Assembly (NCBI GenBank): GCA_038231455.1
Contig: JBBRLI010000007.1
Span: 1 to 64,000, forward strand
Reading direction: 5' to 3'
Length of the DNA stretch: 64,000 nt
Source: Vulcanimicrobiales bacterium
GTDB lineage: Bacteria; Vulcanimicrobiota; Vulcanimicrobiia; Vulcanimicrobiales; Vulcanimicrobiaceae
Part shown: positions 18,463 through 39,450 of the stretch, piece after piece
Position numbering within the stretch: position 1 is the stretch's first letter
Layout: each line of letters opens with the position of its first letter
Notes under the pieces: model-generated
Databases searched by the model: none
Seen by the model: only the letters and a program-made list of their open reading frames with translations
Told to the model about the DNA's origin: nothing
Translations under genes and position numbers: made by a program

Positions 18463-18893
18463 ATCGATCGACCGTCGCGATCGAGTTCGCGCTCGAGCCC
18501 ATCGACCTGCGAGCGTAGCAACTCGACTTGCTCGATCAGGCGGCGATTGACCGTTGCATTCTCGCGAAGCGCACGGATCAGCGACTCATTGACGTTGCGC
18601 TGATCTTTAAAGAGGAACGCCAGCAGAGCGAGCACCGCCCGCTGCAGCCGCGCGCTGCGGTCGAGCGGAAAGAGCCGGAGGTGGCTCGGCCACTTCGTGC
18701 GGACCTGCGAGGCGTGCTCGGCGATGTTGAGGAGCGTTTCGATTGAGGCGAGGCTCGCGGCGCTCGCCGTCATGAGGAGCCGCAGATTCGCGGTCGGCGG
18801 ACGCGTGACGGAGCGACGACGACGCGCAAGTTCTTCGTCGACGCGGAGCATCAACTCATCGGGGTCGATCCCCGGGTTCGTCGTCACGATCAC
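18459..18893 (-). CDS. Hypothetical helical/coiled-coil protein of the glycan operon
   Basis: GTG overlaps the upstream stop (GTGA); IDPDELMLRVDEEL...LFKDQRNVNESLIRAL...LIEQVELLRSQVDGLERE. Confidence 0.65.
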   Translation of the reverse strand: MIVTTNPGIDPDELMLRVDEELARRRRSVTRPPTANLRLLMTASAASLASIETLLNIAEHASQVRTKWPSHLRLFPLDRSARLQRAVLALLAFLFKDQRNVNESLIRALRENATVNRRLIEQVELLRSQVDGLERELDRDGRSI

Positions 18894-20218
18894 GCTGCGG
18901 TCGGGTTTTCGGATCGTGGGCGATTCTCCCCGTCCGCGCGCGACCCGGCAGCGACGCCGACGATCAACCACCACGTGCCGGCGACCGTTGGGTAGAAGAC
19001 CAAATCGTCGAAGAGCCCATGCGCGACAAATCCGGCCGTTGCGGCGCTCGCCGCGAGCGCGAGCGGTGAAGAGCGAAGGTCGCCGACCGCGACGACGGCT
19101 TGGCGAATCAAAAACGCCGTTGCCGCAAGCAGCACGATCCCGCCGTCAGCCAGCGTTTCGAAGAGCCAGCTGTTGGCGTGCGTGCGCAGTTCGGGATACC
19201 CAACCGATGCAAGGCGCACTTCGAAGTTGCCCGCACCGACGCCAACGAGCGGGCTGCTGCGAAAGAGGGCGATCGCCGCATGCCAGAGTTGCGTTCGTGT
19301 CCCAAGGCCATCGGGGCGCGCGACCTCATCGGCCGAAACGATACGCGCGAACGTTCCGGAAACAAACGCGAGCACGCCGAGCGCCGCGACTGCGCCGATG
19401 CAGGCGAAAAGCGCCCCGCGCAACCGCGCGGAGAGCGGACGCGCCTGCAGCACGACGAGCGACGCGACGGCAGCACCGATCGCGCCGCCGCGCGAGAGGG
19501 TCGCAAGGAGTGCAAGACCGAGCACGACGAGCGATACAATCGCGAGCCGCGATCGCCATTCGAGAACGCCCAAAAGCAAGACCGGCAAGAGCAGACCGAG
19601 ATATCCGGCAAGTTGATTGGGACCCGCCAGGAGACCCGCAATGCGCGGCACCACGGTCGAACCGAGCGGAAATCCCGACGGCGCGCCGGTGAAGAGCTGC
19701 GCGAGCGCACCGATCGAAACGAATGCCGCGACCAGCGCAACGCTCGTGAACACGAGACGGTCGTTCCGTTCGGCCGCGAAGGCCGCGTGCGCCATCAGAA
19801 ACGTGATCGCATACTCGAGCAATTTGAGCAGTTCTTGGAAGACGAGTCCGCGATCGTGCGCGCCGAACGCCGAAAGCGCCATTGCGATGGCCATCGCACC
19901 GAATCCAATGCCCACGATACGCACCGCGGGTCGGCGTAATGTCCGCAACAGTTTTGGTTGCGTGAGGAAGGCGATGCCGACGGCGGATGAGACGAGCACG
20001 GAGACGCTGAGCGAGAAGCCCCCGTGGACGTGCGTCCATTCGATCTCATCGGTGAAAAACAGCAGCGCTACCGCCCACGTCGGCCGCGCGCGTGCCAAGA
20101 CGAACGCCGCAATCGTGATCGTGGCGAAAAAAGCACTGGACAGCGGGTCGATATCGAGCCGACGCATCGGTTCGATGACGACCGGGCCGAACAGCCCGAT
20201 CGCCGCGGCGAGCTTCAG
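18890..20218 (-). CDS. O-antigen ligase/polymerase (WaaL/Wzy_C) family
   Basis: RIAGLLAGPNQLAGYL, TLSRGG, RTQLWHAA...PLVGVGAGNF and HANSW..ETLADGG; start uncertain (CTG 20218 or the later ATG of MRRLDID). Confidence 0.85.
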   Translation of the reverse strand: MKLAAAIGLFGPVVIEPMRRLDIDPLSSAFFATITIAAFVLARARPTWAVALLFFTDEIEWTHVHGGFSLSVSVLVSSAVGIAFLTQPKLLRTLRRPAVRIVGIGFGAMAIAMALSAFGAHDRGLVFQELLKLLEYAITFLMAHAAFAAERNDRLVFTSVALVAAFVSIGALAQLFTGAPSGFPLGSTVVPRIAGLLAGPNQLAGYLGLLLPVLLLGVLEWRSRLAIVSLVVLGLALLATLSRGGAIGAAVASLVVLQARPLSARLRGALFACIGAVAALGVLAFVSGTFARIVSADEVARPDGLGTRTQLWHAAIALFRSSPLVGVGAGNFEVRLASVGYPELRTHANSWLFETLADGGIVLLAATAFLIRQAVVAVGDLRSSPLALAASAATAGFVAHGLFDDLVFYPTVAGTWWLIVGVAAGSRADGENRPRSENPTAA

Positions 20219-20874
20219 TGCGCGCCGATTCCGCGCAGTACCGCGGGAATCGTCCGCAAAATAATCCCGAGATCCCCAAGCGGCGTCCACGTTTGAATGT
20301 ACGTGCGGTCGAGTTCGACCCACGCGTGAAAGGGCACGTTCGATCGTCCGGAGATTTGCCAGAGACAGGTGATGCCGGGTTTTACGGTCAGGCGCACGAG
20401 CGCATCCGGAGCGTAATTTTCGACTTCACTCGGAAGCGGCGGGCGGGGGCCAACGATCGCCATCTCTCCGCATAAGACGTTGAAGAAGTTCGGCAGTTCA
20501 TCGATGCTCGTGCGGCGCAACAGCGACCCGAGCGCATGCAGCCGCGGGTCGCGCTTGATCTTGAAAACGGGACCTGGAACTTCGTTGAGATGCTCGATGT
20601 CTTTTGCGTAGCGCTCCGCATCGACGATCATCGTACGCAGCTTCACCATTTTGAAGCGCCGGCCGTTTAGCCCAACGCGTTCTTGCAAGAAAAACGGCGA
20701 ACCCGGCGAGACGATCGCGATGCCGAGTGCCGCGACGGCAACGATCGGAGCGGTGGCGACGGCGACGCTGCCGCCGACGATGAGATCGAGGGCACGTTTG
20801 AGCGTATGCCAGTGGGCGGGAACGACGCGCGCACGCCGAGCGGTCGCGCGCGCAGTCAAAGGAACGACGTTCAT
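20215..20874 (-). CDS. Priming sugar transferase (Bac_transf; WcaJ/EpsE-like C-terminal domain)
   Basis: KRALDL, FFLQERVGLNG, KLRTM, DPR, RRTSIDELP, VGPRP and KPGITCLWQISGR; ATG overlaps the deoB stop. Confidence 0.92.
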   Translation of the reverse strand: MNVVPLTARATARRARVVPAHWHTLKRALDLIVGGSVAVATAPIVAVAALGIAIVSPGSPFFLQERVGLNGRRFKMVKLRTMIVDAERYAKDIEHLNEVPGPVFKIKRDPRLHALGSLLRRTSIDELPNFFNVLCGEMAIVGPRPPLPSEVENYAPDALVRLTVKPGITCLWQISGRSNVPFHAWVELDRTYIQTWTPLGDLGIILRTIPAVLRGIGAH

Positions 20875-22001
20875 ACGCGCGATCCCAGCAGCGTTGCTTC
20901 GACGCGCGCGCCGACGTAGTCTAGACCCGTCACGATCCCGAGATCCTCGCCGCGCAAATCCGACCCGTATTCGAGAAACGGGACGTACTCGCGCGTGTGG
21001 TCGGTCCCCGGCTGCGTCGGATCGCATCCGTGATCGGCCGTAAAAATCAAACGGTCGCCCGGGCGTAGCGCTGCGAGCAGGTCGGGGACGCGCGCGTCGA
21101 GCGCTTCGAGAGCGGCACCGTACCCGCGCACGTCGCGACGGTGACCGTATTTGGAATCGAAGTCGTTGAGATTGACGAACACGAAACCCGATTCGAGCGC
21201 GGCAAGACGTTCGAGCGTCTTTGCGATCGCCTCCGCGTTGTCGGGGACGCGATCGGAGGTCGTGATGCCGTGACCGCAGTAGATGTCGCAGATTTTTCCG
21301 ATGGCGTGCACGGGAATCCCGTGCGCAGCCATGCGGTCCAGCACGCACGGCGGCGGTTCGATCGCGTAATCGCGCCGATTGGGCGTGCGTTCGTACGCGC
21401 CGGGAACCCCGGTGAATGGTCGCGCGATCACGCGGTTGACGTTGTGCGGTGCGACGAGCATCGCGCGAGCGGCTTCGCACCACGCGTAAAGACGTTCGAG
21501 CGGCACGGTCGATTCGTGCGCCGCGACTTGAAAGACCGAGTCTGCCGAGGTGTAAAGAATCGGCCGTCCCGTGCGCTGATGCTCTTCGCCGAGTTCGGCG
21601 ATGATCTCGGTCCCCGAAGCCGGCACGTTCGCAAGCGGCGGCTTCCCGACGATCGCCGTAAACGCATCGATGACTTCGACCGGAAAACCCTGCGGATACG
21701 TGGGGAAGGGGATGTCGGTAATGATGCCCGCCATCTCCCAGTGACCCGTTATCGTATCTTTGCCTTTGGACCGCTCCGCAAGTCGCCCAAACGTGCCGCG
21801 CGGGCGCTCGGGGATGCCGACGCCGCGCACCGGCGTGATCCGCCCAAGGCCCAGTTCGGCAAAATGCGGCAGGCGCAAACCGCCAAGCCGCTCGGCGACG
21901 TTGGCCAGGGTGTTGGCGCGGCCCGTATCGCCATAGGCTCCGGCATCGGGCAGAGCGCCAACTCCGCCGGAGTCCAAAACACACACGATCACGCGAGGCA
22001 T
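20871..22001 (-). CDS. deoB: Phosphopentomutase
   Basis: VLDSGGVGALPDA, GKDTITGHWE, YTSADSVFQVAAHE, RVIARPF, FDSKYGHRRD, TADHGCDP and DHTREYVP. Confidence 0.95.
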   Translation of the reverse strand: MPRVIVCVLDSGGVGALPDAGAYGDTGRANTLANVAERLGGLRLPHFAELGLGRITPVRGVGIPERPRGTFGRLAERSKGKDTITGHWEMAGIITDIPFPTYPQGFPVEVIDAFTAIVGKPPLANVPASGTEIIAELGEEHQRTGRPILYTSADSVFQVAAHESTVPLERLYAWCEAARAMLVAPHNVNRVIARPFTGVPGAYERTPNRRDYAIEPPPCVLDRMAAHGIPVHAIGKICDIYCGHGITTSDRVPDNAEAIAKTLERLAALESGFVFVNLNDFDSKYGHRRDVRGYGAALEALDARVPDLLAALRPGDRLIFTADHGCDPTQPGTDHTREYVPFLEYGSDLRGEDLGIVTGLDYVGARVEATLLGSRV

Positions 22002-22102
22002 ACAGCGTTTGCGGTTCGCATGGCCGGCGAAGCGCGCCTCCCGGGGGCGGGACCGTTCTCCCGCGGCGATGAAACCGCGCCGGTCATCGTTCAGAAAGCA
22101 GA

Positions 22103-23800
22103 ATGCCCATTCGCCGTGAATTTTTTGCCGCAATCGCGCTCGTTCTGGTATTCGCGGGGGGCGTCCGTCCCGCAGCGGCCGTCACGCGGACGGTCGATCT
22201 GAATGCGACCTCGGTCCGCTACTTTAGCAACCGCTTTATCGTCACGGCCGACGGAAACGTGCGGGCGCGACTCTCGGACGGCACCGTGATTACCGGCAGC
22301 ACGTTTGCGATGGATTTGAAGCTGAACCGCTTCGTGATCGCGGGCGGCGTGCACGTGGTGGGACCGGGGATCGACGAGCGGGGCGCGGCCTGGTCCGGCT
22401 ATCCGGATCTTGACGAATCGTTCTTCTTGCCGGCGTTCGACCGGCCGGATCGCTGGACGCTCTTTGGGAGTGACTACGCCCACCCGCAAAAGGGCCGCGT
22501 CCAACCCGGCGATGCATTTTTCTTGCCGGATCTCAGCGGCGATCGGGCGTTCATCCGCGCGAATGCCGCGACGATCATCCCGCGTCAAATGGTGCAGTTC
22601 AGTCCGGGCAGCATCCTTGCCCTCGGGGTGTACGTGCCGATACCGGGATACGATCTGGTGTTCTCGGCGAATCCGAATTTCGTGCAGAACGCATTTGCGG
22701 GCGCGCTCAGCGATGTCGGCCTTCCATATCACGGCTCGCGCACGAGCGTCTCGGCAATACACGTTCGCTACGATCAGACCTACGGCGCGTACCTCGCGTT
22801 CGACCAGCACTTCGTGTGGGACAAAGACTACATCGTGCTCTCGGCCGATCCGCTCAATCGCCCGCAGCGCCAGTACAATGCCATCGGGTTCAAAAAGTTC
22901 TCCCCGAACTTCGAGAGCCGCCTCTTCCTGCAAGAGAGCGTGTATCAGCACGTCATCAGTAAGCCCGACGTCGCGACGCTGTTCTCCAATCTGCAGGCGA
23001 CGCTGGGCAAGAACCATACGTCCCTCTCGCTCAACGTCAATCAGTTCAATACGAGCTTAATTCCGGCGGACTCGCATCACGACTTCAACCCGCTCTCAGA
23101 TCAGCATCCCGTCGAGTTTCAGGCCGGACTCACGCATTCGAACACACCGATTAACGGGACGCCGTTTCAATTTGCATATCGGATCGGCGCTGGGATGGCG
23201 CACAACAGCTACACGATCGAAACGTTCGGGAACCAGCAGACGCCCATCACGACCCTCTGGTACAACGTCGCGGGCTTCACGCTCACCTCGCCGAACATCA
23301 AATTGCCCGCCAACATCAACATCAATGCATCGTTCGACCGGTCGCGTCAGCACTATTCGCTGCCGTTCTATCAGGACAGCGCCTTGACGACGATTTCCGC
23401 GAACAAACCCTACTCGACAAAACTCAATCTCTCGCTGACCTACAGCGTCAACAACCTCGGACTCTACTACGGCGATCGCCAAAGCGAATTTTTCCCCGCG
23501 AACGATATCCCGGCCGATCACGGGTTCGCAGCGTTTCGCGGTCAGACCACGAGTCGATCGCTCACCGGCGGATTCGTTTTTACACCGACACCCGACTTCG
23601 CGCTCAACTTGCAGTTGCGACACGAGACGGATTTTCCCAAGCAGGTGCCATTCGTGTATGGAGTTGCGCCGTACTCACTGACGGGCGACGTGCGTGTTCG
23701 ACTCTCGCAGCACGTCCTGATGGATGTCGGTCGCTCGTACTTCTTCAATTTTGCAAATCAACGCCTCTCACCTCAAACGACGGTACAATTCGCACCATGA
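22103..23800 (+). CDS. Exported beta-rich protein, LptD/OstA-like outer-membrane barrel candidate (copy 1)
   Basis: Signal peptide; OstA-like N-terminus (LNATSVRY...TADGNVR...ITGSTFAMDL...IAGGVHV); amphipathic beta-strand C-terminal region rich in aromatic residues, N, S and T. Confidence 0.6.
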   Translation: MPIRREFFAAIALVLVFAGGVRPAAAVTRTVDLNATSVRYFSNRFIVTADGNVRARLSDGTVITGSTFAMDLKLNRFVIAGGVHVVGPGIDERGAAWSGYPDLDESFFLPAFDRPDRWTLFGSDYAHPQKGRVQPGDAFFLPDLSGDRAFIRANAATIIPRQMVQFSPGSILALGVYVPIPGYDLVFSANPNFVQNAFAGALSDVGLPYHGSRTSVSAIHVRYDQTYGAYLAFDQHFVWDKDYIVLSADPLNRPQRQYNAIGFKKFSPNFESRLFLQESVYQHVISKPDVATLFSNLQATLGKNHTSLSLNVNQFNTSLIPADSHHDFNPLSDQHPVEFQAGLTHSNTPINGTPFQFAYRIGAGMAHNSYTIETFGNQQTPITTLWYNVAGFTLTSPNIKLPANININASFDRSRQHYSLPFYQDSALTTISANKPYSTKLNLSLTYSVNNLGLYYGDRQSEFFPANDIPADHGFAAFRGQTTSRSLTGGFVFTPTPDFALNLQLRHETDFPKQVPFVYGVAPYSLTGDVRVRLSQHVLMDVGRSYFFNFANQRLSPQTTVQFAP

Positions 23801-24672
23801 TGACGCTTCGCTCGCGCCTCGCGCTTCTCGCCATCGCCGCAGCCGTCGCGCTCGCGGCGCCGGTCCACGCACAAAGTACTCCGGCACCGGTGCCCTCCGC
23901 CGCGAGCACGCTCGCGCCAACGCTACTGACCGGCGGGCTGTTGCGCTTCTCCGGCCAACTGCTCGACGTGCAAAACGGATATATCTTCCTCACGACGGGC
24001 GATGCGTTCAAGCTCGCCCCGAGCGCGCGCATCGTGGAAGCGGCTACGAATCAGCCGACGACGGCGACGCCGCAGACGCGCATGTACGTACGGCTCGATT
24101 TCGATCCGGTGGCCGGGGTCGTGACCGAACTTGCGCTCTCGAAGAAGCCGATTACTGGTGAGAAGAGCTTCGAACAGGTCAAAGCATTTGTGGTTGCCGT
24201 CTCCAAGCCGGTGGAAAATCCCGAATTGATCGGCCGCAAAGGTCTTACCGGCAAACCGGTTCTGGTCGTCTTTACCGTCGAAGTTCCGGCGTCGACACCG
24301 TACAACGATCAAGTCTATATCGCAACCGATTACAGCAACTGGGATCCGCGCTCGATCCACCTGGATCGCTTCGATGCGCTGCACTACCGCGTCACGAGGA
24401 AACTCGCGTCAGGTACGAAGTTTGCTTACCGCGTAACGCGCGGTTCGTGGAACTCGGTCGAGCGCGGCGCCGATAGTCTCGAACCGCCGCCGCATGTCGT
24501 GAGCGTCAACGAAGTGGACTCGCAAGCCGAACGCTCGCATGTGTACCGCTGGTCAGACGACAACCCGCTCAACCCCGGTCAGCGCAACGTCGGCCCGGGG
24601 AATATCCCAACGCCGTTCCAAGTGAACCCCTTCCCATCACTCCCGCCCCGGGCGACGTCGAAACCGCACTAA
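23797..24672 (+). CDS. Secreted protein with C-terminal CBM20-like (starch-binding fold) domain (copy 1)
   Basis: Signal peptide ending VHA-Q; VVFTVEVPASTP..DQVYIA...NWDP...FAYRVTRGSWNSVE resembles the CBM20 pattern. Confidence 0.7.
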   Translation: MMTLRSRLALLAIAAAVALAAPVHAQSTPAPVPSAASTLAPTLLTGGLLRFSGQLLDVQNGYIFLTTGDAFKLAPSARIVEAATNQPTTATPQTRMYVRLDFDPVAGVVTELALSKKPITGEKSFEQVKAFVVAVSKPVENPELIGRKGLTGKPVLVVFTVEVPASTPYNDQVYIATDYSNWDPRSIHLDRFDALHYRVTRKLASGTKFAYRVTRGSWNSVERGADSLEPPPHVVSVNEVDSQAERSHVYRWSDDNPLNPGQRNVGPGNIPTPFQVNPFPSLPPRATSKPH

Positions 24673-24673
24673 C

Positions 24674-26275
24674 TTGAAACGGGCGTTTGCGGTGTGCGCC
24701 CTCGTGATGTGTGCCTTGAGCGCACGTGCCGACGCGCGCACGACGCTCGACGTGCGGGCGGGGACGCTCGACTTCTACAGCGACGTGCTCGCGCTCGTCG
24801 CGCACGATCGCGTCGTCGCAACGATCGGCGGAAAAACGATCGCTGCCGACTATGCCTACATCGACGTCTATCACGACCGCGCGGTGTTCGGCGGCGACGT
24901 GCATCTGCGCGAGGGCGCGAGCGATCGCGCCTTTGCAACGCTCGCGGTGGACATCGATGCGATCTGCGGCACCGGCATCACGGCCGATGAAACGCCGCGC
25001 ATCCTCGCTCTCGCGAAGCTCGATCCGCGCGATGAGGACGTGCTCGATGCATTGCCGACGGGTGACGCATTTACCGTAACGGCCTTCGATGGCCGCGCTC
25101 CCTACATTCGCGCACGCCATGCCGTGCTGAACGCACACGCAAGTGTACGACTCACACCTGCAGCGTTCCCGAGCAATCTGTTCGCGCCGCCCGCGCCGAC
25201 GTTTCTCTATTCGCTCGCAGCCAATCCGAATCTGACGACATCGACGCTTCCGGCCGCGACGTTCGACCAACCGCTCAACCTCGCAGGCGGAAAGAACGCA
25301 CTCCTTGCAGCGCATCTGCGGTATCTCGAAGGCACCGGCGGCGTGATTGCGTTCGACGAGCATCTCGTTGACGAGGATCGTGCGTACGCCGTCGCGTCGC
25401 TCGATGCCCCAGCGCGGGCAGCACAGACGCTAGGCCTCTCCGCGTACCAGCGTATGAGCGATAAACTCACGCAGTCGTTTGATACGAGCCGGTCGTTCGG
25501 CCTAACCGTAGCACACTATGCATTCAACGCCGAAGTCGGCCGGCTTTACGGGCGGCTCGATGTCGGGCAGGCGGGCGCGAGCGGCACGATCGAGACGAGT
25601 CTGCGTACGCGCGAACGTCCGCTCTTCGGCGGTGCGACGTATCGACTCCGAGCCGCATACGGTCTCGATCACAATCCGTTCGGCGAATTGAATCGCGCGG
25701 CCGATCCGCTGAACTATCCGCTTCTTTTTCGTACGTCAATCCAAGCCGATCTCGCCTCGCCGTTGTTCCACGGCCCGTTTGGAACGAGCGTCAGCGCCAC
25801 ACTCTCGGATGCGCAAACGTGGTACGCCTACCCGCGCACGCGTAGTTCGCTCGGCAGTACGGCGACGATCTCCAAACGATTTAGCAGCGCACTCTTCGGC
25901 AACGCAAGTGTCTCGACGAATTTCTTTGCCGACGATTACGGGCGCGCGCAGCTAAAATTCTTTCCGCCAACGCCAGTCGTTCTTTCGGACGGCAGCACTT
26001 GGTTCGGTGCGGATGCCTTTCGTGGGTTCACAACCTCGCGCACCTACTCACTCGATCTCTATCTCACGCCGCGGCCCTCGACCGACGTGCGTCTAAATAT
26101 CACGCGGACGAACGACTTCCCGCAGTTCAATGGCTACGGACGACCCATTACCGTCGCGCGGGTCGACGTCCGCTTCCGCCCGATCCCAAATCTTGGCATC
26201 GCAATCGGACGCAGCGACCAGTTCGGGTGGGGCGGTGTGAGGTTCTCGCGCTGGTCGCTGAGCGTGACGCCTTGA
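24674..26275 (+). CDS. Exported beta-rich protein, LptD-like barrel candidate (copy 2)
   Basis: Signal peptide ending ADA; shares ANPN, HxRY, AFDxH, FFP, AFRGxTTSR and DFP motifs with 22103-23800. Confidence 0.6.
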   Translation: MKRAFAVCALVMCALSARADARTTLDVRAGTLDFYSDVLALVAHDRVVATIGGKTIAADYAYIDVYHDRAVFGGDVHLREGASDRAFATLAVDIDAICGTGITADETPRILALAKLDPRDEDVLDALPTGDAFTVTAFDGRAPYIRARHAVLNAHASVRLTPAAFPSNLFAPPAPTFLYSLAANPNLTTSTLPAATFDQPLNLAGGKNALLAAHLRYLEGTGGVIAFDEHLVDEDRAYAVASLDAPARAAQTLGLSAYQRMSDKLTQSFDTSRSFGLTVAHYAFNAEVGRLYGRLDVGQAGASGTIETSLRTRERPLFGGATYRLRAAYGLDHNPFGELNRAADPLNYPLLFRTSIQADLASPLFHGPFGTSVSATLSDAQTWYAYPRTRSSLGSTATISKRFSSALFGNASVSTNFFADDYGRAQLKFFPPTPVVLSDGSTWFGADAFRGFTTSRTYSLDLYLTPRPSTDVRLNITRTNDFPQFNGYGRPITVARVDVRFRPIPNLGIAIGRSDQFGWGGVRFSRWSLSVTP

Positions 26276-26913
26276 AACGTATCGGTGCGCTCGCGTTTGC
26301 GCTCGTCGCCTTTGGCACTTCGGCGCGCGCAGACGAGCCGCAGGTCTACCGCAGCACGCTCCTGGGTATCAGTACGACGGCCATCACGCTCGAAGGAGGA
26401 GCGACACTGCGTCGTTCTCCGGCACTCGGCGCACGCGACTTCACCCGGGCACTTGGCCACACCGTCTACGTGCAGCTCGACGACGACGGGACCGTCACCG
26501 CGCTTGCGCTCGTGTTACCCCGACACGCGCAACTCTTGCCGCTTGCCGATCTGCCGCAGGCGACGTTCGCAATCGCCGCTCGCTCCGCCGCGCAGCAAGC
26601 AGCAGACCACATCACGCTGACGATCGTGGTCGCCGTTCCGCCCCGCACTCCCAGCGGCGATGACGTTTATCTGAGTACGGATCGCACCGGCTTTGCAGCA
26701 GCCGAACTGCGGATGAACCGCATCGATCCGCTGCACTGGGCAATCGACGTGCCGATCGCGCGCGGCTCGACTCTCGTGTATCGTTTCACGCGCGGCAGCT
26801 CCGCGAACGGTGAACGCGACGCCGCCGGCGGCGGCGTGCACGCTCATCTGGTCCTTGCCGATGCGCCTAAGCGCACGAAGGACAACGTCGCTTCATGGGC
26901 CGACGTGCCATAA
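26272..26913 (+). CDS. Secreted protein with CBM20-like domain (copy 2)
   Basis: TTG overlaps the upstream TGA; MKRIGALAFALVAFGTSARA signal; VAVPPRTPSGDDVYLSTD...YRFTRGS. Confidence 0.7.
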   Translation: MKRIGALAFALVAFGTSARADEPQVYRSTLLGISTTAITLEGGATLRRSPALGARDFTRALGHTVYVQLDDDGTVTALALVLPRHAQLLPLADLPQATFAIAARSAAQQAADHITLTIVVAVPPRTPSGDDVYLSTDRTGFAAAELRMNRIDPLHWAIDVPIARGSTLVYRFTRGSSANGERDAAGGGVHAHLVLADAPKRTKDNVASWADVP

Positions 26914-26961: not shown

Positions 26962-28635
26962 TTGACTCGCAAAACACGAACCGCACTCTGGGCGCTCGCC
27001 TTTTTCGTCGTCCTCTTCGCGCGCCGCTGGCAGCTCCTTCGTTCGCCGCAAGTTTGGGGCGAAGACGGATCGGTCGTTCTCCGGGGCTTCATCGAGGTCG
27101 GCTACTCGACCGTCATCGATCCACTCAACGGCTACCTGGTCGGCGTATCGCGATTCATCTCGCTCGCCGCATTCGCAATCACGCCGGTCTACTATCCGAT
27201 CCTGAGTACGATCTTCGCTTGGATATTCGTCGTCCTCGTCGCCGTTGCGATTTCGCTCGCGCCGATTCGCATTCGGGGCGGACCATTACTGGCCTTGGCA
27301 ACATTGCTCGTGCCGTCCGATCCCGAAGTTTTTGGATTGCCGTTGTACGCCTTCTGGTGGGCGGGGCTGCTGATCCTACTCGCGACGCTCTGGCAGCGCG
27401 GCGCGGGGGCACAGGGCTGGCGCAACGCGTTTGTCGTTATCGGCGGACTTTCGTCCCCGGTCATTCTTCTCGCATGGCCGCTCTTCGCATACCGGCTCAT
27501 CGTCGACCGCACGAGTCGTGCCGAACGCTCGACGTTCACATGCGCGTCGATTTGTGTCGCGATCCAAATTGCCGTGCTCCGTTCGCAGAGCGTTGCGCCC
27601 GAAAAAAGCCTACTGGATATAGGCAACGTCCTCTTAGCCCAAGCGACGTTTCTGGGCAATTACATCCTCGGCGATCTCGCCCGCGCCAATGCCGGAATAC
27701 AGTCGATCGTTCTTACGCTCGCCGGTCTTGTGACACTTGCGTTCATCGCCTATACGCTTCGCGCGGAGCGGCAATCCCGCGAGGATCTCCTCTGCCTGCT
27801 CTACCTTTGGTTTGGTTCGATCGCGCTCTCTGCGGCTCGCATCCACGTTGCGATACTGGAGCCTGCCATCCGGGGTCCGAGATATTTTTTCTATCCGTTT
27901 GTCCTCGAGGGCTGGTTTCTCGTCCACCTCGTTTGCACCGCGCGGCGGCCCACAATCCGCATTCTTGCGGTCGCGTTTCTTGCGCTCGGCTTCGTAACGA
28001 CGTTACCCATTTTAAGCCGATCGCATGACGATCTCAATTGGACCTCGAGCCTCGAGCAGTGCGCGCAACTGAGTGATAAGCAGTCATCCCGCTTGCCTGT
28101 TGAATCCGATGGTAAATTGTCGTCAGCATGGTCCCTTGCGATCACCGGCGTGCACTGTCGGCAGCTTGTCGCACGCGATGCAATCGTAAGCCTTCTCCCA
28201 TCGCTTCGTCCGCAAGCGCTCTTTGTGGTCATCCCGATCCAAACGGAGCACATCGATCGAACGACGATTGCCTCGACCGCGGCAGTCCAGAAGAATTCAT
28301 GGGGCGGCAGCGATTTCCAAAAATCGCGCTTTTTGGGATTGACCGTGATCGGGTCGTGGCAAACTAGCGACGCGAATACTGGCATTCTCCAATTGCACCT
28401 GCACCGCGGCGATCGCGTGCTCTTCCGCACCGGCCCAAGCGATGGAGGACAATACATCGAAATCGCCGCCGAGACGACCACCTGGAAACGGCATCTCCCC
28501 GTCGCCATTACGCCGGATTGGACGATCTTGGAGTTTTCGAGTCCGGTTCTGCCCGATCGTTTTACGGTAACATTCGAGGACAGCGGGACGGCCTGGGGTG
28601 AGTGGTCTGCGGTAGCGCTCGCGCGTCATCTCTAG
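26962..28635 (+). CDS. Polytopic membrane protein, putative GT-C glycosyltransferase, with C-terminal beta domain
   Basis: PQVWGEDG...PLNGYL loop after TM1, PRYFFYP, about 10 TMs and a soluble C-terminal beta-sandwich-like region. Confidence 0.65.
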   Translation: MTRKTRTALWALAFFVVLFARRWQLLRSPQVWGEDGSVVLRGFIEVGYSTVIDPLNGYLVGVSRFISLAAFAITPVYYPILSTIFAWIFVVLVAVAISLAPIRIRGGPLLALATLLVPSDPEVFGLPLYAFWWAGLLILLATLWQRGAGAQGWRNAFVVIGGLSSPVILLAWPLFAYRLIVDRTSRAERSTFTCASICVAIQIAVLRSQSVAPEKSLLDIGNVLLAQATFLGNYILGDLARANAGIQSIVLTLAGLVTLAFIAYTLRAERQSREDLLCLLYLWFGSIALSAARIHVAILEPAIRGPRYFFYPFVLEGWFLVHLVCTARRPTIRILAVAFLALGFVTTLPILSRSHDDLNWTSSLEQCAQLSDKQSSRLPVESDGKLSSAWSLAITGVHCRQLVARDAIVSLLPSLRPQALFVVIPIQTEHIDRTTIASTAAVQKNSWGGSDFQKSRFLGLTVIGSWQTSDANTGILQLHLHRGDRVLFRTGPSDGGQYIEIAAETTTWKRHLPVAITPDWTILEFSSPVLPDRFTVTFEDSGTAWGEWSAVALARHL

Positions 28636-28997: not shown

Positions 28998-29936
28998 GTG
29001 GATTATCAACCCCTCGATCTCTCGGCGATGCGGGTGACATCGCTCGACGCTCGCCCATCCAAAGTGTCGCGCGCGGCGCTTGGGACAACGACGCCGGCTC
29101 CAGCTAGCTTTCGCGGCTGGTTCGATGCGCTCCCCGACGTCCTCGCCGGTGCGTCGCTGCGCGAACTGATCGAGCGCACGGTCACGGCAATCCGAAGTCG
29201 CCGCCCGATTCTCTTCGGCATGGGCGGACACGTGATCAAAGTCGGCCTCGCGCCGCTCGTGTGCGATCTCGTTCGCGAAGGACTGATTTCGGCGGTAGTC
29301 TCCAACGGTTCGGTCACCATTCACGACGTCGAGCTTGCGCTCGTCGGCAAGACCTCCGAAGACGTTGACGTCGCCTTGCAAGACGGATCGTTCGGGATGT
29401 CCGGCGAGACCGCCGACTTCATCTTAGGCACGATCAATGCGCGAGGTGCGAGCGTCGGCGTTGGACGCGCGCTTGGCGATGCGCTCGCCGGCGCACCGTA
29501 CGCGTCAACCTCGGTTCTCGCGACCTGCGCCCGCGAGAAAATTCCGATGAACGTCGTCATCGCGGTCGGCACCGATATCGTTCATGCGCATCCGCAAGCC
29601 GACGGTGCGGCGCTCGGAGCGGGTTCGCTTTACGATTTTCGCACGCTGTGCGCCGTCGTCGGCGACTTGCTCGATGGCGGCGTCTATCTGAATTTTGGTT
29701 CGGCCGTGCTGCTGCCCGAAGCGTTTCTCAAAGCGGTGAGTACCGCACGCAATCTTGGCTTCAGCGGTTCGTTCACTACGGCAGACTTCGATTTTATCCG
29801 TCAATACCGCGCGGCGACCAACGTCGTTCGGCGACCGCATCTGGGCAACGCGGGACGCGGCTATGCATTTACCGGGCATCATGAGCTGATGTTCCCGCTC
29901 TTCTGGCAGGCCGTTCGCGAACGGCTCGCGTCGTGA
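28998..29936 (+). CDS. Deoxyhypusine synthase-like (DHS-fold) protein
   Basis: GMGGHVIKVGL, IHDVELA, TSEDV...GSFGM, GTDIVHAHP, NFGSAVLLPEAFLKA and GHHELMFPL. Confidence 0.7.
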   Translation: MDYQPLDLSAMRVTSLDARPSKVSRAALGTTTPAPASFRGWFDALPDVLAGASLRELIERTVTAIRSRRPILFGMGGHVIKVGLAPLVCDLVREGLISAVVSNGSVTIHDVELALVGKTSEDVDVALQDGSFGMSGETADFILGTINARGASVGVGRALGDALAGAPYASTSVLATCAREKIPMNVVIAVGTDIVHAHPQADGAALGAGSLYDFRTLCAVVGDLLDGGVYLNFGSAVLLPEAFLKAVSTARNLGFSGSFTTADFDFIRQYRAATNVVRRPHLGNAGRGYAFTGHHELMFPLFWQAVRERLAS

Positions 29937-30901
29937 CCGACTTCATTAGCATCGTCGTTCCGCTCTACAACGAAGAGGGGAACGTCCGCACGCTCGTCGC
30001 GCGGATCGGTGCAATCATGGAGGGAATCACGCCGGATTACGAACTCGTCTGTATCAACGACGGCAGCAAAGATGCCACCTTACCGATTTTGCGCGAACTC
30101 GCGCAGACGAATCGGCATCTCGTCATCGTCAATCTCTCGCGCAACTTCGGTCACCAGCTGGCGGCGACGGCCGGCCTCGACACCGCGCTCGGCGATGCGA
30201 TCGTGCTCATGGACGGCGATCTGCAGGACCCGCCCGAACTGATCGCGGCCTTCGTCGAGAAGTGGCGCGCGGGATACGACGTCGTCTATGCGACGCGCCG
30301 CTCGCGTCGTGGCGAGAGCATGTTCAAAGTTTTTACCGCGCGGCTCTTCTACCGTATCACGCGCCGTCTGACGAACGTCTCGATCCCCGTCGACACCGGA
30401 GACTTCCGCCTGATGAGCCGCCGCGTCGTCGACGCGCTCAAACGCACGCGCGAGACGCACCGCTTCATTCGCGGCCTCGTCAGCTGGGTCGGCTACAACC
30501 AAATCGGCGTCGAGTACGACCGCGACGAGCGGATGTCGGGCACGACGAAGTATCCGTTTTCGAAGATGCTGACGTTCGCAATCGACGGCATCACCTCGTT
30601 CAGTCAGGTCCCGCTGCGGCTTGCGTCCTACTTGGGTTTTGCGACCAGCGGGTTTGCGTTCATCTACGCCGTCATCGTGCTCGTCTTAAAATTCTTGCAC
30701 CGCAACCAGCCGGGCTTCACCTCGACGATTTTGGCGATTCTGTTTCTCGGCGGCGTGCAGCTGATCTCACTTGGCATTCTCGGCGAATACATCGGCCGTA
30801 TCTACGATGAGATCAAAGCGCGTCCGCTTTACTTAGTTGCCGATATCGAGCGGTCGGACGAGCGCACCGTCGCAAACACCAGCGGCCGCAGCGCGACCTG
30901 A
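29933..30901 (+). CDS. Undecaprenyl-phosphate glycosyltransferase (GtrB/YkcC-like GT2)
   Basis: VVPLYNEE, NDGSKD, SRNFGHQ, DGDLQDPPE, DTGDFRLM and two C-terminal TMs with LGEYIGRIY. Confidence 0.93.
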   Translation: MTDFISIVVPLYNEEGNVRTLVARIGAIMEGITPDYELVCINDGSKDATLPILRELAQTNRHLVIVNLSRNFGHQLAATAGLDTALGDAIVLMDGDLQDPPELIAAFVEKWRAGYDVVYATRRSRRGESMFKVFTARLFYRITRRLTNVSIPVDTGDFRLMSRRVVDALKRTRETHRFIRGLVSWVGYNQIGVEYDRDERMSGTTKYPFSKMLTFAIDGITSFSQVPLRLASYLGFATSGFAFIYAVIVLVLKFLHRNQPGFTSTILAILFLGGVQLISLGILGEYIGRIYDEIKARPLYLVADIERSDERTVANTSGRSAT

Positions 30902-38368: not shown

Positions 38369-38472
38369 GAGGGGATGGCCGCCGTGCGGCCCGAATTCAC
38401 GGGACGTTTGCGGAGCCCTTGAGCTCCGTTCTTTACGCCGCCGGCTGTCTAGCAGTTTGGCTTGGAGTTGAC

Positions 38473-39450
38473 ATGTTTTCGATTGGTAACCGCGCTCTCG
38501 CGGGTTTCGCGACAGCGACGCTGTGTCTTGGTCTGGCCGCTTGCGGTTCGGGCGGCGGTGGCGGCGACATCGCCGCGGTGAACGGACAGAAAATCTCACG
38601 CGCCGACTTCGACAAGAAGCTCGAAGCAGGCCCGGCCGGAAAGTCGACGCTCACGCAACTCGTGCAGCAGTCGCTTGTCGACCAGTATGCAAACGACAAC
38701 AAAATCACGGTCGCGGACTCCGAAATCGACAAACGCGAGAACGACATCAAAGCGAAGTACCCCGCCGGTCAGTTCGATCAGATCCTCAAACAACAGGGTC
38801 TTACCGAACCCGATGTACGCACGATTCTGCGCCAGCAGATCGTGATCGAGAAGGCCGTCAGCAAAGACGTCCACGTTTCGGATACCGACATCAAAGCGTA
38901 CTTCGATAAGAATCACGCGACGCTCGATAAACCCGAGCAGGTGCGCGCGCGCCACATCCTCGTTGCCGATCTCAAAACGGCAAACGACGTCGAAGCCAAG
39001 CTTAAATCCGGTGCCAAGTTCGAAGATCTGGCCAAACAATATTCGACCGATCCCTCATCGAAAGATAAAGGCGGCGAGCTCGGCTTCTTCGGAAAAGGTC
39101 AGATGGTCCCGGCGTTCCAGGATGCCGCGTTCTCATCGCCCATCGGCAAAATCACGGCGCCCGTGAAATCGCCGTTCGGCTTCCACATCATCCAGGTCGA
39201 AGAGAAGAAAGCCGCGGTCAAGGCGACGCTGGCCAACCAGCACGATACGATTGCCGATCAGCTCAAGCAGCAGCAGAACGCGCAGCAGTTCCCGGTCTTC
39301 CTCCAGGGTCTGAAGGCGAAAGCCAAGATCGAAGTTTACGACGACCGTCTTAAGGACGCGTTCCCGCCGGCCGTGCCTGCGGCAGCGACCGCACCGCCCG
39401 CCGCCGCTCCCGCTGCGACCCCCGCGGCCAAGGCGACCCCCGCGAAGTAA
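38473..39450 (+). CDS. prsA: PrsA-like parvulin peptidyl-prolyl isomerase (foldase) lipoprotein
   Basis: GGAG RBS, LAAC lipobox, VRARHILV, FEDLAKQYSTD, GGELG, MVPAF and SPFGFHII. Confidence 0.92.
   Translation: MFSIGNRALAGFATATLCLGLAACGSGGGGGDIAAVNGQKISRADFDKKLEAGPAGKSTLTQLVQQSLVDQYANDNKITVADSEIDKRENDIKAKYPAGQFDQILKQQGLTEPDVRTILRQQIVIEKAVSKDVHVSDTDIKAYFDKNHATLDKPEQVRARHILVADLKTANDVEAKLKSGAKFEDLAKQYSTDPSSKDKGGELGFFGKGQMVPAFQDAAFSSPIGKITAPVKSPFGFHIIQVEEKKAAVKATLANQHDTIADQLKQQQNAQQFPVFLQGLKAKAKIEVYDDRLKDAFPPAVPAAATAPPAAAPAATPAAKATPAK

Follow-up and report, generated by a model that had tools for sequence, protein, structure and literature searches.

Introduction

The lipopolysaccharide (LPS) translocon LptD–LptE (LptD, PF04453; LptD_N, PF03968; LptE, PF04390) is the closest described system to a pair of genes, here called A and B, that occurs twice in the order A-B-A′-B′ at positions 22103–26913 of a 64,000-nucleotide stretch of a Vulcanimicrobiales genome (hereafter the window). 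To our knowledge, no outer-membrane protein other than LptD is held to join a lipid-conducting jellyroll to a barrel, and it is this uniqueness, together with its essentiality, that makes LptD a drug target. Like LptD, A is predicted to consist of an N-terminal periplasmic β-sandwich fused to a large barrel; its gene is paired with that of a small secreted protein, and its host is a diderm with LPS genes. The two systems differ in that the A barrel has about 19–20 strands as opposed to the 26 of LptD, and A has no Pfam, NCBIfam or PDB-profile match. The partner B is a two-domain CBM20 protein with no lipobox, whereas LptE is a lipoprotein, and A lies outside the lpt operon and coexists with a canonical-type LptD. 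A preprint describes LptD-type barrels as uniformly 26-stranded (10.64898/2026.03.07.710327). On the evidence below, the ordinary LptD probably has beside it, in A–B, a further machine for envelope transport that has not been described before.

Polysaccharide porins (PgaA, AlgE, BcsC, and Wzp with a short OPX) resemble the pair in that a mid-sized barrel is encoded close to Wzx/Wzy-type genes and side by side with a periplasmic protein that handles glycans (10.1101/2022.02.11.480155). However, such porins carry TPR repeats or no periplasmic domain, whereas A has an OstA-like sandwich, and B has no Poly_export or SLBB domain. LptD homologues have been proposed to act on surface lipoproteins (a Borrelia LptD homologue; LptDE-dependent lipoprotein sorting), which would give a precedent for LptD-type machines with non-LPS cargo. 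These are the organism's single LptD and have no carbohydrate-binding module (CBM) partner, whereas A represents a second, smaller, paralog-like family. Chaperone-usher systems (FimD/PapC) share with the pair a partner with an Ig-like sandwich, and the ushers form the second group of structural matches to A; ushers, however, have 24 strands, an internal plug and C-terminal domains, and neither A nor B matched any family of ushers, pilins or chaperones. Unlike the CBM20 domains of glucoamylase, β-amylase, CGTase, STBD1 and laforin, that of B falls below the Pfam CBM_20 threshold, is attached to no enzyme and follows a conserved N-domain, and its gene is coupled to that of an outer-membrane barrel. 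In the literature searched, no paper mentioned both LptD and CBM20, and LptD was unmentioned in the top-ranked part of the literature naming the phylum, which was the part checked. On LptD paralogs, the papers listed dealt with the single LptD only.

Results

Four translationally coupled genes form two paralogous pairs

Four plus-strand open reading frames (ORFs) span positions 22103–26913 and are translationally coupled. Gene A (22103–23800) encodes a predicted outer-membrane protein of 565 amino acids with a signal peptide, an N-terminal β-sandwich, a β-barrel and a C-terminus of the form F-[SGA]-P. It overlaps B (23797–24672) by an ATGA at 23797–23800. B encodes a secreted non-lipoprotein of 291 amino acids, made up of an N-domain, a helix, a CBM20-fold C-domain and a proline-rich tail. 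The stop codon of B (TAA, 24670–24672) is separated by one base from the TTG start of A′ at 24674; A′ (24674–26275) is a 533-amino acid paralog of A with, by alignment, the same architecture. A TTGA overlap at 26272–26275 then joins A′ to B′ (26272–26913), a 213-amino acid paralog of B that also starts with TTG and has a divergent N-domain. The ORFs and junctions are thus as an earlier note, made from the sequence alone, had described them. Signal peptides, which that note had likewise called, were assigned by visual inspection and from the helix at the N-terminus of each structure model.

By BLASTP, A and A′ align over their full length (23% identity, E = 1e-24), and the motifs ANPN, H.RY...AFD.H, FFP...AFRG.TTSR and DFP, on which paralogy had first been proposed, are visible in the alignment. 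For B and B′, the C-terminal 100 residues align (30% identity, E = 2e-13). In this alignment B′ carries F and S at the positions of the invariant W182 and W218 of B, so that two of the three invariant tryptophans of B are lost in B′. In a six-frame search of the genome containing the window (3.71 Mb, 106 contigs, 93.7% complete), the A profile, which has A′ itself among its rows, matched A and A′ only, and the B profile matched B and B′ only. None of the four proteins could be assigned to a Pfam or NCBIfam family, and neither the A nor the B family has a name in these databases; the sole hit from these databases among the four was a chance-level match of B to the N-terminal part of GlgB (E = 0.018).

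A is predicted to combine an OstA-type sandwich with a β-barrel

A was modelled with AlphaFold2 from a 56-row alignment (predicted local distance difference test, pLDDT, 83.8; predicted template modelling score, pTM, 0.70), and strands were counted on the model with DSSP. The model comprises a signal helix (residues 2–19), a β-sandwich at about residues 31–190 (strands within 31–121 and 151–186) and a barrel at about 203–564. Between residues 203 and 564 the barrel contains 19 strands of at least 7 residues, and about 19–20 strands overall; the last is short and of low confidence (pLDDT 55–60). The near-invariant prolines P179 and P208 lie in strands where the barrel region begins. The lateral gate of LptD also has conserved prolines.

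When the model was compared with the PDB by Foldseek, the best 15 among the matches listed, with E values from 3.6e-12 to 1.8e-8, were LptD chains that retain the N-terminal domain. Entries for an LptD "core" truncated at the N-terminus matched at 2e-6 to 2.5e-4 (5iv9 versus 5iv8; 4q35 versus 4rhb and 4n4r), level with the FimD/PapC ushers (E = 7e-6 to 1.5e-4) that make up the second group of matches. Because the truncated cores score far worse, the N-domain of A adds to the LptD match. The model therefore supports an N-terminal OstA-type jellyroll joined to a barrel, and A is, on this model, built on an LptD-like plan. The earlier note's call of an LptD/OstA-like barrel thus stands as far as the sandwich, the barrel and the leading structural matches are concerned; the strand number, about 19–20 and not 26, and the want of a firm sequence placement are where it falls short.

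Sequence comparison gave a fainter signal. When A was aligned by hhalign with a 29-row alignment of the LptD proteins of the phylum, a probability of 38% was obtained (P = 3.3e-4), with 263 collinear columns from the start of the OstA domain; in the controls, reversed sequences gave P = 0.38–0.40 and the unrelated B family P = 0.003. This is a weak hint of common ancestry between A and LptD. In a six-frame genome search with the phylum LptD profile (A3), built from eight LptD-like ORFs of the sister class, A was reached only at E = 21, as against E = 7.9e-44 for an 886-amino acid gene considered below. In the ESM Atlas, the nearest neighbours of A were unnamed Vulcanimicrobiota clusters, followed by "OstA/LptA family" clusters of 490–566 amino acids (score 0.96) from Synergistota and Bacillota. 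This proximity is a lead, and the Synergistota and Bacillota clusters may be further compact LptD-like proteins.

Four of five features that define LptD were not found in A, namely a family sequence match, 26 strands, an LptE partner and linkage to lpt genes, and because of this A was not filed as LptD.

B carries a CBM20 fold and conserved tryptophans

The AlphaFold2 model of B (pLDDT 79.8) shows a signal helix, a conserved N-domain at about residues 47–120 (strands within 49–115), a helix, a C-domain (151–251) whose β-sandwich spans 154–248, and a low-confidence tail. Comparison of structure models identified the C-domain as a CBM20 β-sandwich, the fold that had been proposed for the end of B from its sequence. 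Pfam CBM_20 (PF00686) itself gave sub-threshold matches to 3 of 53 B-family members (best E = 0.053). A link in sequence was provided by the sister family f11, in which the B profile matched four proteins at about 1e-13. At the one of these four loci that was examined, in genome G028 of this low-GC (guanine plus cytosine) family, two minus-strand paralogs (L059:6306–7436 and L059:9876–10997) pass the Pfam CBM_20 cut-off (2e-8 and 2.4e-11), and both consist of an N-terminal CBM_20 domain fused to a PF00756 esterase. These are the nearest sequence relatives of the B C-domain outside the class. BLASTP of B against one f11 CBM_20 protein gave E = 1e-6, with the NWDP motif aligned and W182 coinciding with its tryptophan. 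Judged from the model, the C-domain of B is thus a CBM20 by fold, with transitive sequence support.

W182, W218, W252 and Y197 are invariant in 53/53 B-family members, as is a tail motif, IPTPF..PF; W182 and W218 would correspond to the two canonical site-1 tryptophans of CBM20 (glucoamylase numbering). A lipobox was present in none of the 53 members, and B is therefore not a lipoprotein of the LptE type, a distinction that the earlier note had drawn. Pfam LptE matched neither B nor the 53 family members, and Poly_export and SLBB domains were not detected in the same proteins at E ≤ 5. No LptE chain was among the Foldseek and VIA matches listed for B; a family outside that list could still match, and this result was not counted as evidence.

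The A–B pair is conserved throughout one class

Presence was counted in 151 sampled Eremiobacterota genomes, in which the class comprises three families (f1, f2 and f3). A was found in 79 of 80 f1 genomes, 2 of 2 f2 genomes and 10 of 10 f3 genomes, that is, in 92 of 93 members of the class with the genome of the window, and in none of the 58 genomes of the other 16 families of the phylum. Across the phylum A therefore reaches 92/151 genomes, as against 150/151 for the LptD type. Full-length B was present in 80/80, 2/2 and 9/10 genomes of f1, f2 and f3, respectively; the four further B-profile matches, in f11, are a different protein. The f3 tallies include one unpublished genome (G117), without which they become 9/9 for A and 8/9 for B. 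Homologues at E ≤ 0.001 numbered 194 for A (among 8000 scored candidates) and 185 for B, all of them "hypothetical proteins" of Eremiobacterota metagenome-assembled genomes (Velthaea, Elarobacter, Baltobacteraceae and Vulcanimicrobiaceae among the names). When the A profile was run exhaustively, as a hidden Markov model, against 1.84 billion cluster representatives, only 253 clusters were matched at E ≤ 0.001, from which the A family is seen to be narrow.

A and B lie on one contig in 90 of the 93 class genomes, and B is directly downstream of A in 88 of these 90. The gap from match to match is 0–300 bases (median 54) in 86 of the 90; a slight overlap occurs in 2, and an insert of about 1.4 kb separates the genes in G093 and G103. 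Without G117 the counts are 85 and 87 of 89. By tblastn, B follows A in 13 of 14 fetched loci. The remaining locus holds a recently arisen additional A gene of G133, a genome with two near-identical copies (L050 and L056; tree branch lengths 0.028 and 0.016), of which one only is followed by B. As it turned out, A does model as a barrel, the pairing is conserved in relatives and no characterised system was matched, the three points on which the earlier note had staked its proposal.

The tandem arrangement proved less general. A′-B′ follows A-B in 4 of the 14 context loci, and B′ follows A′ in all 4 cases where A′ is adjacent. In f3, a second copy of A sits 20–30 kb away and has no detectable B-like neighbour. 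A quick maximum-likelihood tree of the A family resolved an A clade containing f1, f2 and f3 (SH-aLRT 96), an A′ clade containing f1 and f2 (88) and a group of f3 second copies (100). Because the A′ clade holds both f1 and f2, the duplication predates at least the f1/f2 split. In many f1 genera A-B only is kept, for example in 30/30 genomes of g4. The A′ duplication is ancient and has been lost in many lineages, and it is no feature of the system as a whole.

Four metagenome gene calls (P0279, P0323, P0364 and P0377) match both the A and the B profile, in A-B or B-A′ order. These apparent fusions, which were not used as evidence, probably arose artefactually, by read-through or frameshift where the genes overlap.

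The genome encodes a separate LptD

The phylum is described as diderm with LPS genes (PMC6664022, PMC9758169). In the genome of the window, BamA, LpxC, two LptF/LptG genes and LptC/LptA-type proteins were identified. An LptD of 886 amino acids is encoded on the minus strand of contig C6 (87718–90636; L051:4716–7376) and was matched by the phylum LptD profile at E = 7.9e-44. It is placed between an LptF/LptG gene and lnt with an LptC-like gene; a separate canonical-type lptD, for which the earlier note had proposed a search, thus exists in the genome, in an lptF/G-lptD-lnt-lptC operon. The nearest named ESM Atlas clusters of this protein are LptD families of about 610–950 amino acids. The LptD profile matches 150 of the 151 phylum genomes and 93/93 in the class that bears A. 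A and A′ therefore belong to an additional LptD-like system and not to a replacement. The idea that A is the organism's missing LptD was rejected, given the 886-amino acid LptD in the lpt operon and the presence of its type in 150/151 genomes.

Pfam and NCBIfam fail to recognise the 886-amino acid protein. Pfam LptD has no match in the genome of the window or in any of its 92 class relatives, and outside the class it matches only weakly, in 9 of 58 genomes and to ORFs of 683–826 amino acids; it is probable that LptD goes unrecognised by annotation pipelines across the whole phylum. This Pfam blank says little, since the control was positive in only 2 of 14 reference genomes.

Co-occurrence of a 432-amino acid LptC/LptA-like protein with A was also considered and set aside as uninformative, as OstA modules cross-match across the phylum. 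Some f3 ORFs of about 600–650 amino acids (for example G083:C1:54414–56126 and G067:C2:466747–468468) match the LptC/LptA-like protein in four successive stretches, and would on this pattern be periplasmic proteins with tandem OstA modules.

Glycan-assembly genes recur beside A–B

Upstream of A, the window contains a minus-strand polysaccharide cluster with a GT2, a DUF2142/PMT_2 GT-C, epimerases, a UDP-glucose dehydrogenase, a Wzx-like gene, MurJ, two GT4, a Wzy_C gene and a small Bac_transf gene. The gene divergent from A encodes phosphopentomutase (deoB). Across the 14 context loci, deoB, the small Bac_transf, MurJ, a PgfS/ArnC-like GT2, Wzy_C and mfd recur. The Wzy_C/O-antigen-ligase-family membrane protein (18890–20323, minus strand) has a homologue in 10 of the 14 loci. 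The small polyprenyl glycosylphosphotransferase (Bac_transf; 20215–20871, minus strand) matches TIGR03025 at 6.5e-73, below the curated cut-off, and was confirmed in 3/3 loci tested (L041, L043 and L045). The GT2 polyprenol-phosphate glycosyltransferase (29933–30901, plus strand), also below curated cut-offs, has a homologue in 8 of the 14. The recurrence of polyprenol-linked periplasmic glycan-assembly genes beside A–B, among them a GT-C gene between A and B in G093 and another adjoining B in an f3 locus, is a notable feature; a functional link of Wzy_C, Bac_transf and GT2 to the pair is something that we only infer from gene order. The earlier note's proposal that the system may serve these neighbours has recurrent synteny as its only basis here, and the closest conserved neighbours also include deoB, murJ and mfd.

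Discussion

In the reading that we prefer, A–B would form a second translocon of the LptD type whose cargo is a glycan anchored to lipid and whose B component reads the sugar, an explanation held tentatively and at somewhat less than even confidence. A–B, joined in some lineages by A′-B′, would be a two-component outer-membrane machine of one Eremiobacterota class. A lipid-anchored glycan would be received on the periplasmic sandwich of A and released into or across the outer membrane through the seam of its barrel, and the CBM20 of B would recognise the sugar chain, binding cargo for A as LptE does for LptD. Rather than bulk LPS, what is carried might be another glycolipid or a subset that is capped with glycan. 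The binding of A to B, the direction of transport and the cargo are all points that we infer. A bolder version, which we regard as doubtful, is that A–B represents a second lineage of the LptD plan, in which a compact barrel of about 20 strands, an OstA-type arm and an obligate lectin-like CBM20 partner would, in all members of the class and in parallel to Lpt, bring to the cell surface a lipid-anchored glycan distinct from lipid A-core LPS; A′-B′, with a CBM that has lost its tryptophans, would then be a specialised or regulatory copy.

Several results weigh against the translocon interpretation. By VIA, in which the barrel only was aligned, the A barrel superposes on VDAC/Tom40, TonB-dependent receptors and BamA as well as on LptD. 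The tightest superpositions are those on the 19-stranded VDAC/Tom40/Mdm10 (250–263 residues, root-mean-square deviation (rmsd) 3.5–4.2 Å); the rmsd for LptD is 8.5 Å. Since such barrel superpositions are generic, the case for LptD comes from the N-domain and the overall plan only; the modelled barrel, at about 19–20 strands, is clearly smaller than the 26-stranded one of LptD. PDB profile searches (profiles A1 and A2), that for A included, gave no significant match, the Pfam models LptD, LptD_N, OstA_2 and LptC were matched by 0/56 A-family members even at E ≤ 5, and hhalign of A against eight LptD-like proteins of the sister class returned a probability of 8.7%. No second LptB2FG-type extractor was found, LptF_LptG matches in the genome numbering only two, and neither the window nor any of the 14 context loci has A beside lpt genes. 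A CBM20 fold is by itself silent on which sugar, if any, B binds. The conserved neighbours, finally, include the housekeeping genes deoB, murJ and mfd, and their synteny may reflect frozen gene order and not function; because part of the conserved neighbourhood is clearly housekeeping, synteny alone is weak evidence.

The match of the barrel of about 19–20 strands to generic transport barrels as good as that to LptD is also what would be expected if A were a porin whose glycan carries no lipid, engaged in polysaccharide export of the PgaA/AlgE/Wzp type or in α-glucan uptake, with B as a periplasmic or surface glycan-binding subunit. The CBM20 fold of B with its invariant aromatic residues and the Wzx/Wzy-type genes nearby agree with this, and a barrel with a periplasmic partner is a known design in Wzx/Wzy pathways (10.1101/2022.02.11.480155). 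We nevertheless consider a porin unlikely, as barrels of the PgaA/AlgE/Wzp type have no counterpart of the OstA-like sandwich of A, B has no Poly_export or other Pfam domain, and the single Poly_export (OPX) match of the genome lies elsewhere, on contig C3. In the 14 loci surveyed, no amylase or sugar-uptake gene stands beside the pair, and near-universal retention in the class is more easily squared with a core role in the envelope than with a nutrient niche. Somewhat less probable again, and suggested by analogy with two-partner secretion and with lipoprotein export by LptD homologues, is that A is a dedicated exporter of B, which A would thread through or flip so that it is displayed as a surface lectin or adhesin. 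B is not a lipoprotein, with no lipobox in any of the 53 members, A has no POTRA domains, and there is no sign here of B outside the cell.

The LptD-like plan of A and the O-antigen-ligase-family gene that recurs nearby would fit a second LPS translocon, condition- or pole-specific for example, in which B replaces LptE non-homologously. Pfam LptE (PF04390) has 0 matches in the genome, in keeping with this, with the weak control of that model positive in only 3 of 14 genomes. Yet a canonical-type LptD is kept in 93/93 class genomes, the lpt operon holds the 886-amino acid gene and not A, and the A barrel is much smaller than that of LptD, which makes this explanation improbable. We give as little credence to a role outside transport, in which A would serve a structural purpose in the outer membrane, its periplasmic domain acting with B to tether that membrane to a glycan of the periplasm or wall. 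The class-wide position next to murJ and the carbohydrate-binding fold of B are compatible with a tether, but a large barrel whose last strand is short and weak, and which has an OstA-like domain, is atypical of one, and no OmpA_C, LysM or SPOR peptidoglycan-binding domain was detected in A or B.

On the bolder version, the export of glycolipids to the outer membrane would have a further branch, in which sugar recognition is built in. A conserved second family on the LptD plan, with a smaller barrel and a carbohydrate-binding partner, would show that the design has found use with other cargo. It would offer a natural comparison of how barrel size and plug or partner set the cargo, and would give a role to two families of "hypothetical proteins" present in nearly all sampled genomes of a widespread soil and peat class. 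The phylum has a cultured representative (PMC9758169), and the question is therefore approachable by experiment.

Other genes near the pair

Directly after B′, the window encodes a multi-pass membrane protein of 557 amino acids with a C-terminal soluble domain (26962–28635, plus strand); it has no family match and was not found beside A–B in 14 other loci. In G093, a GT-C membrane glycosyltransferase gene (DUF2079/PMT_2; L044:8862–10232) is inserted between A and B. At an f3 locus, a GT-C_AftD-like gene of 804 amino acids (L047:4363–6777) adjoins B. On the other side of the pair in the window, a minus-strand ORF of 589 amino acids at 20215–21984 is probably a false extension, as its last 218 residues are the small Bac_transf, and the overlapping frame 20871–22133 is deoB. 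About 11 kb downstream of the pair and past mfd, a SurA-like periplasmic peptidyl-prolyl isomerase, of the outer-membrane-protein chaperone type, is encoded at 38419–39450 on the plus strand.

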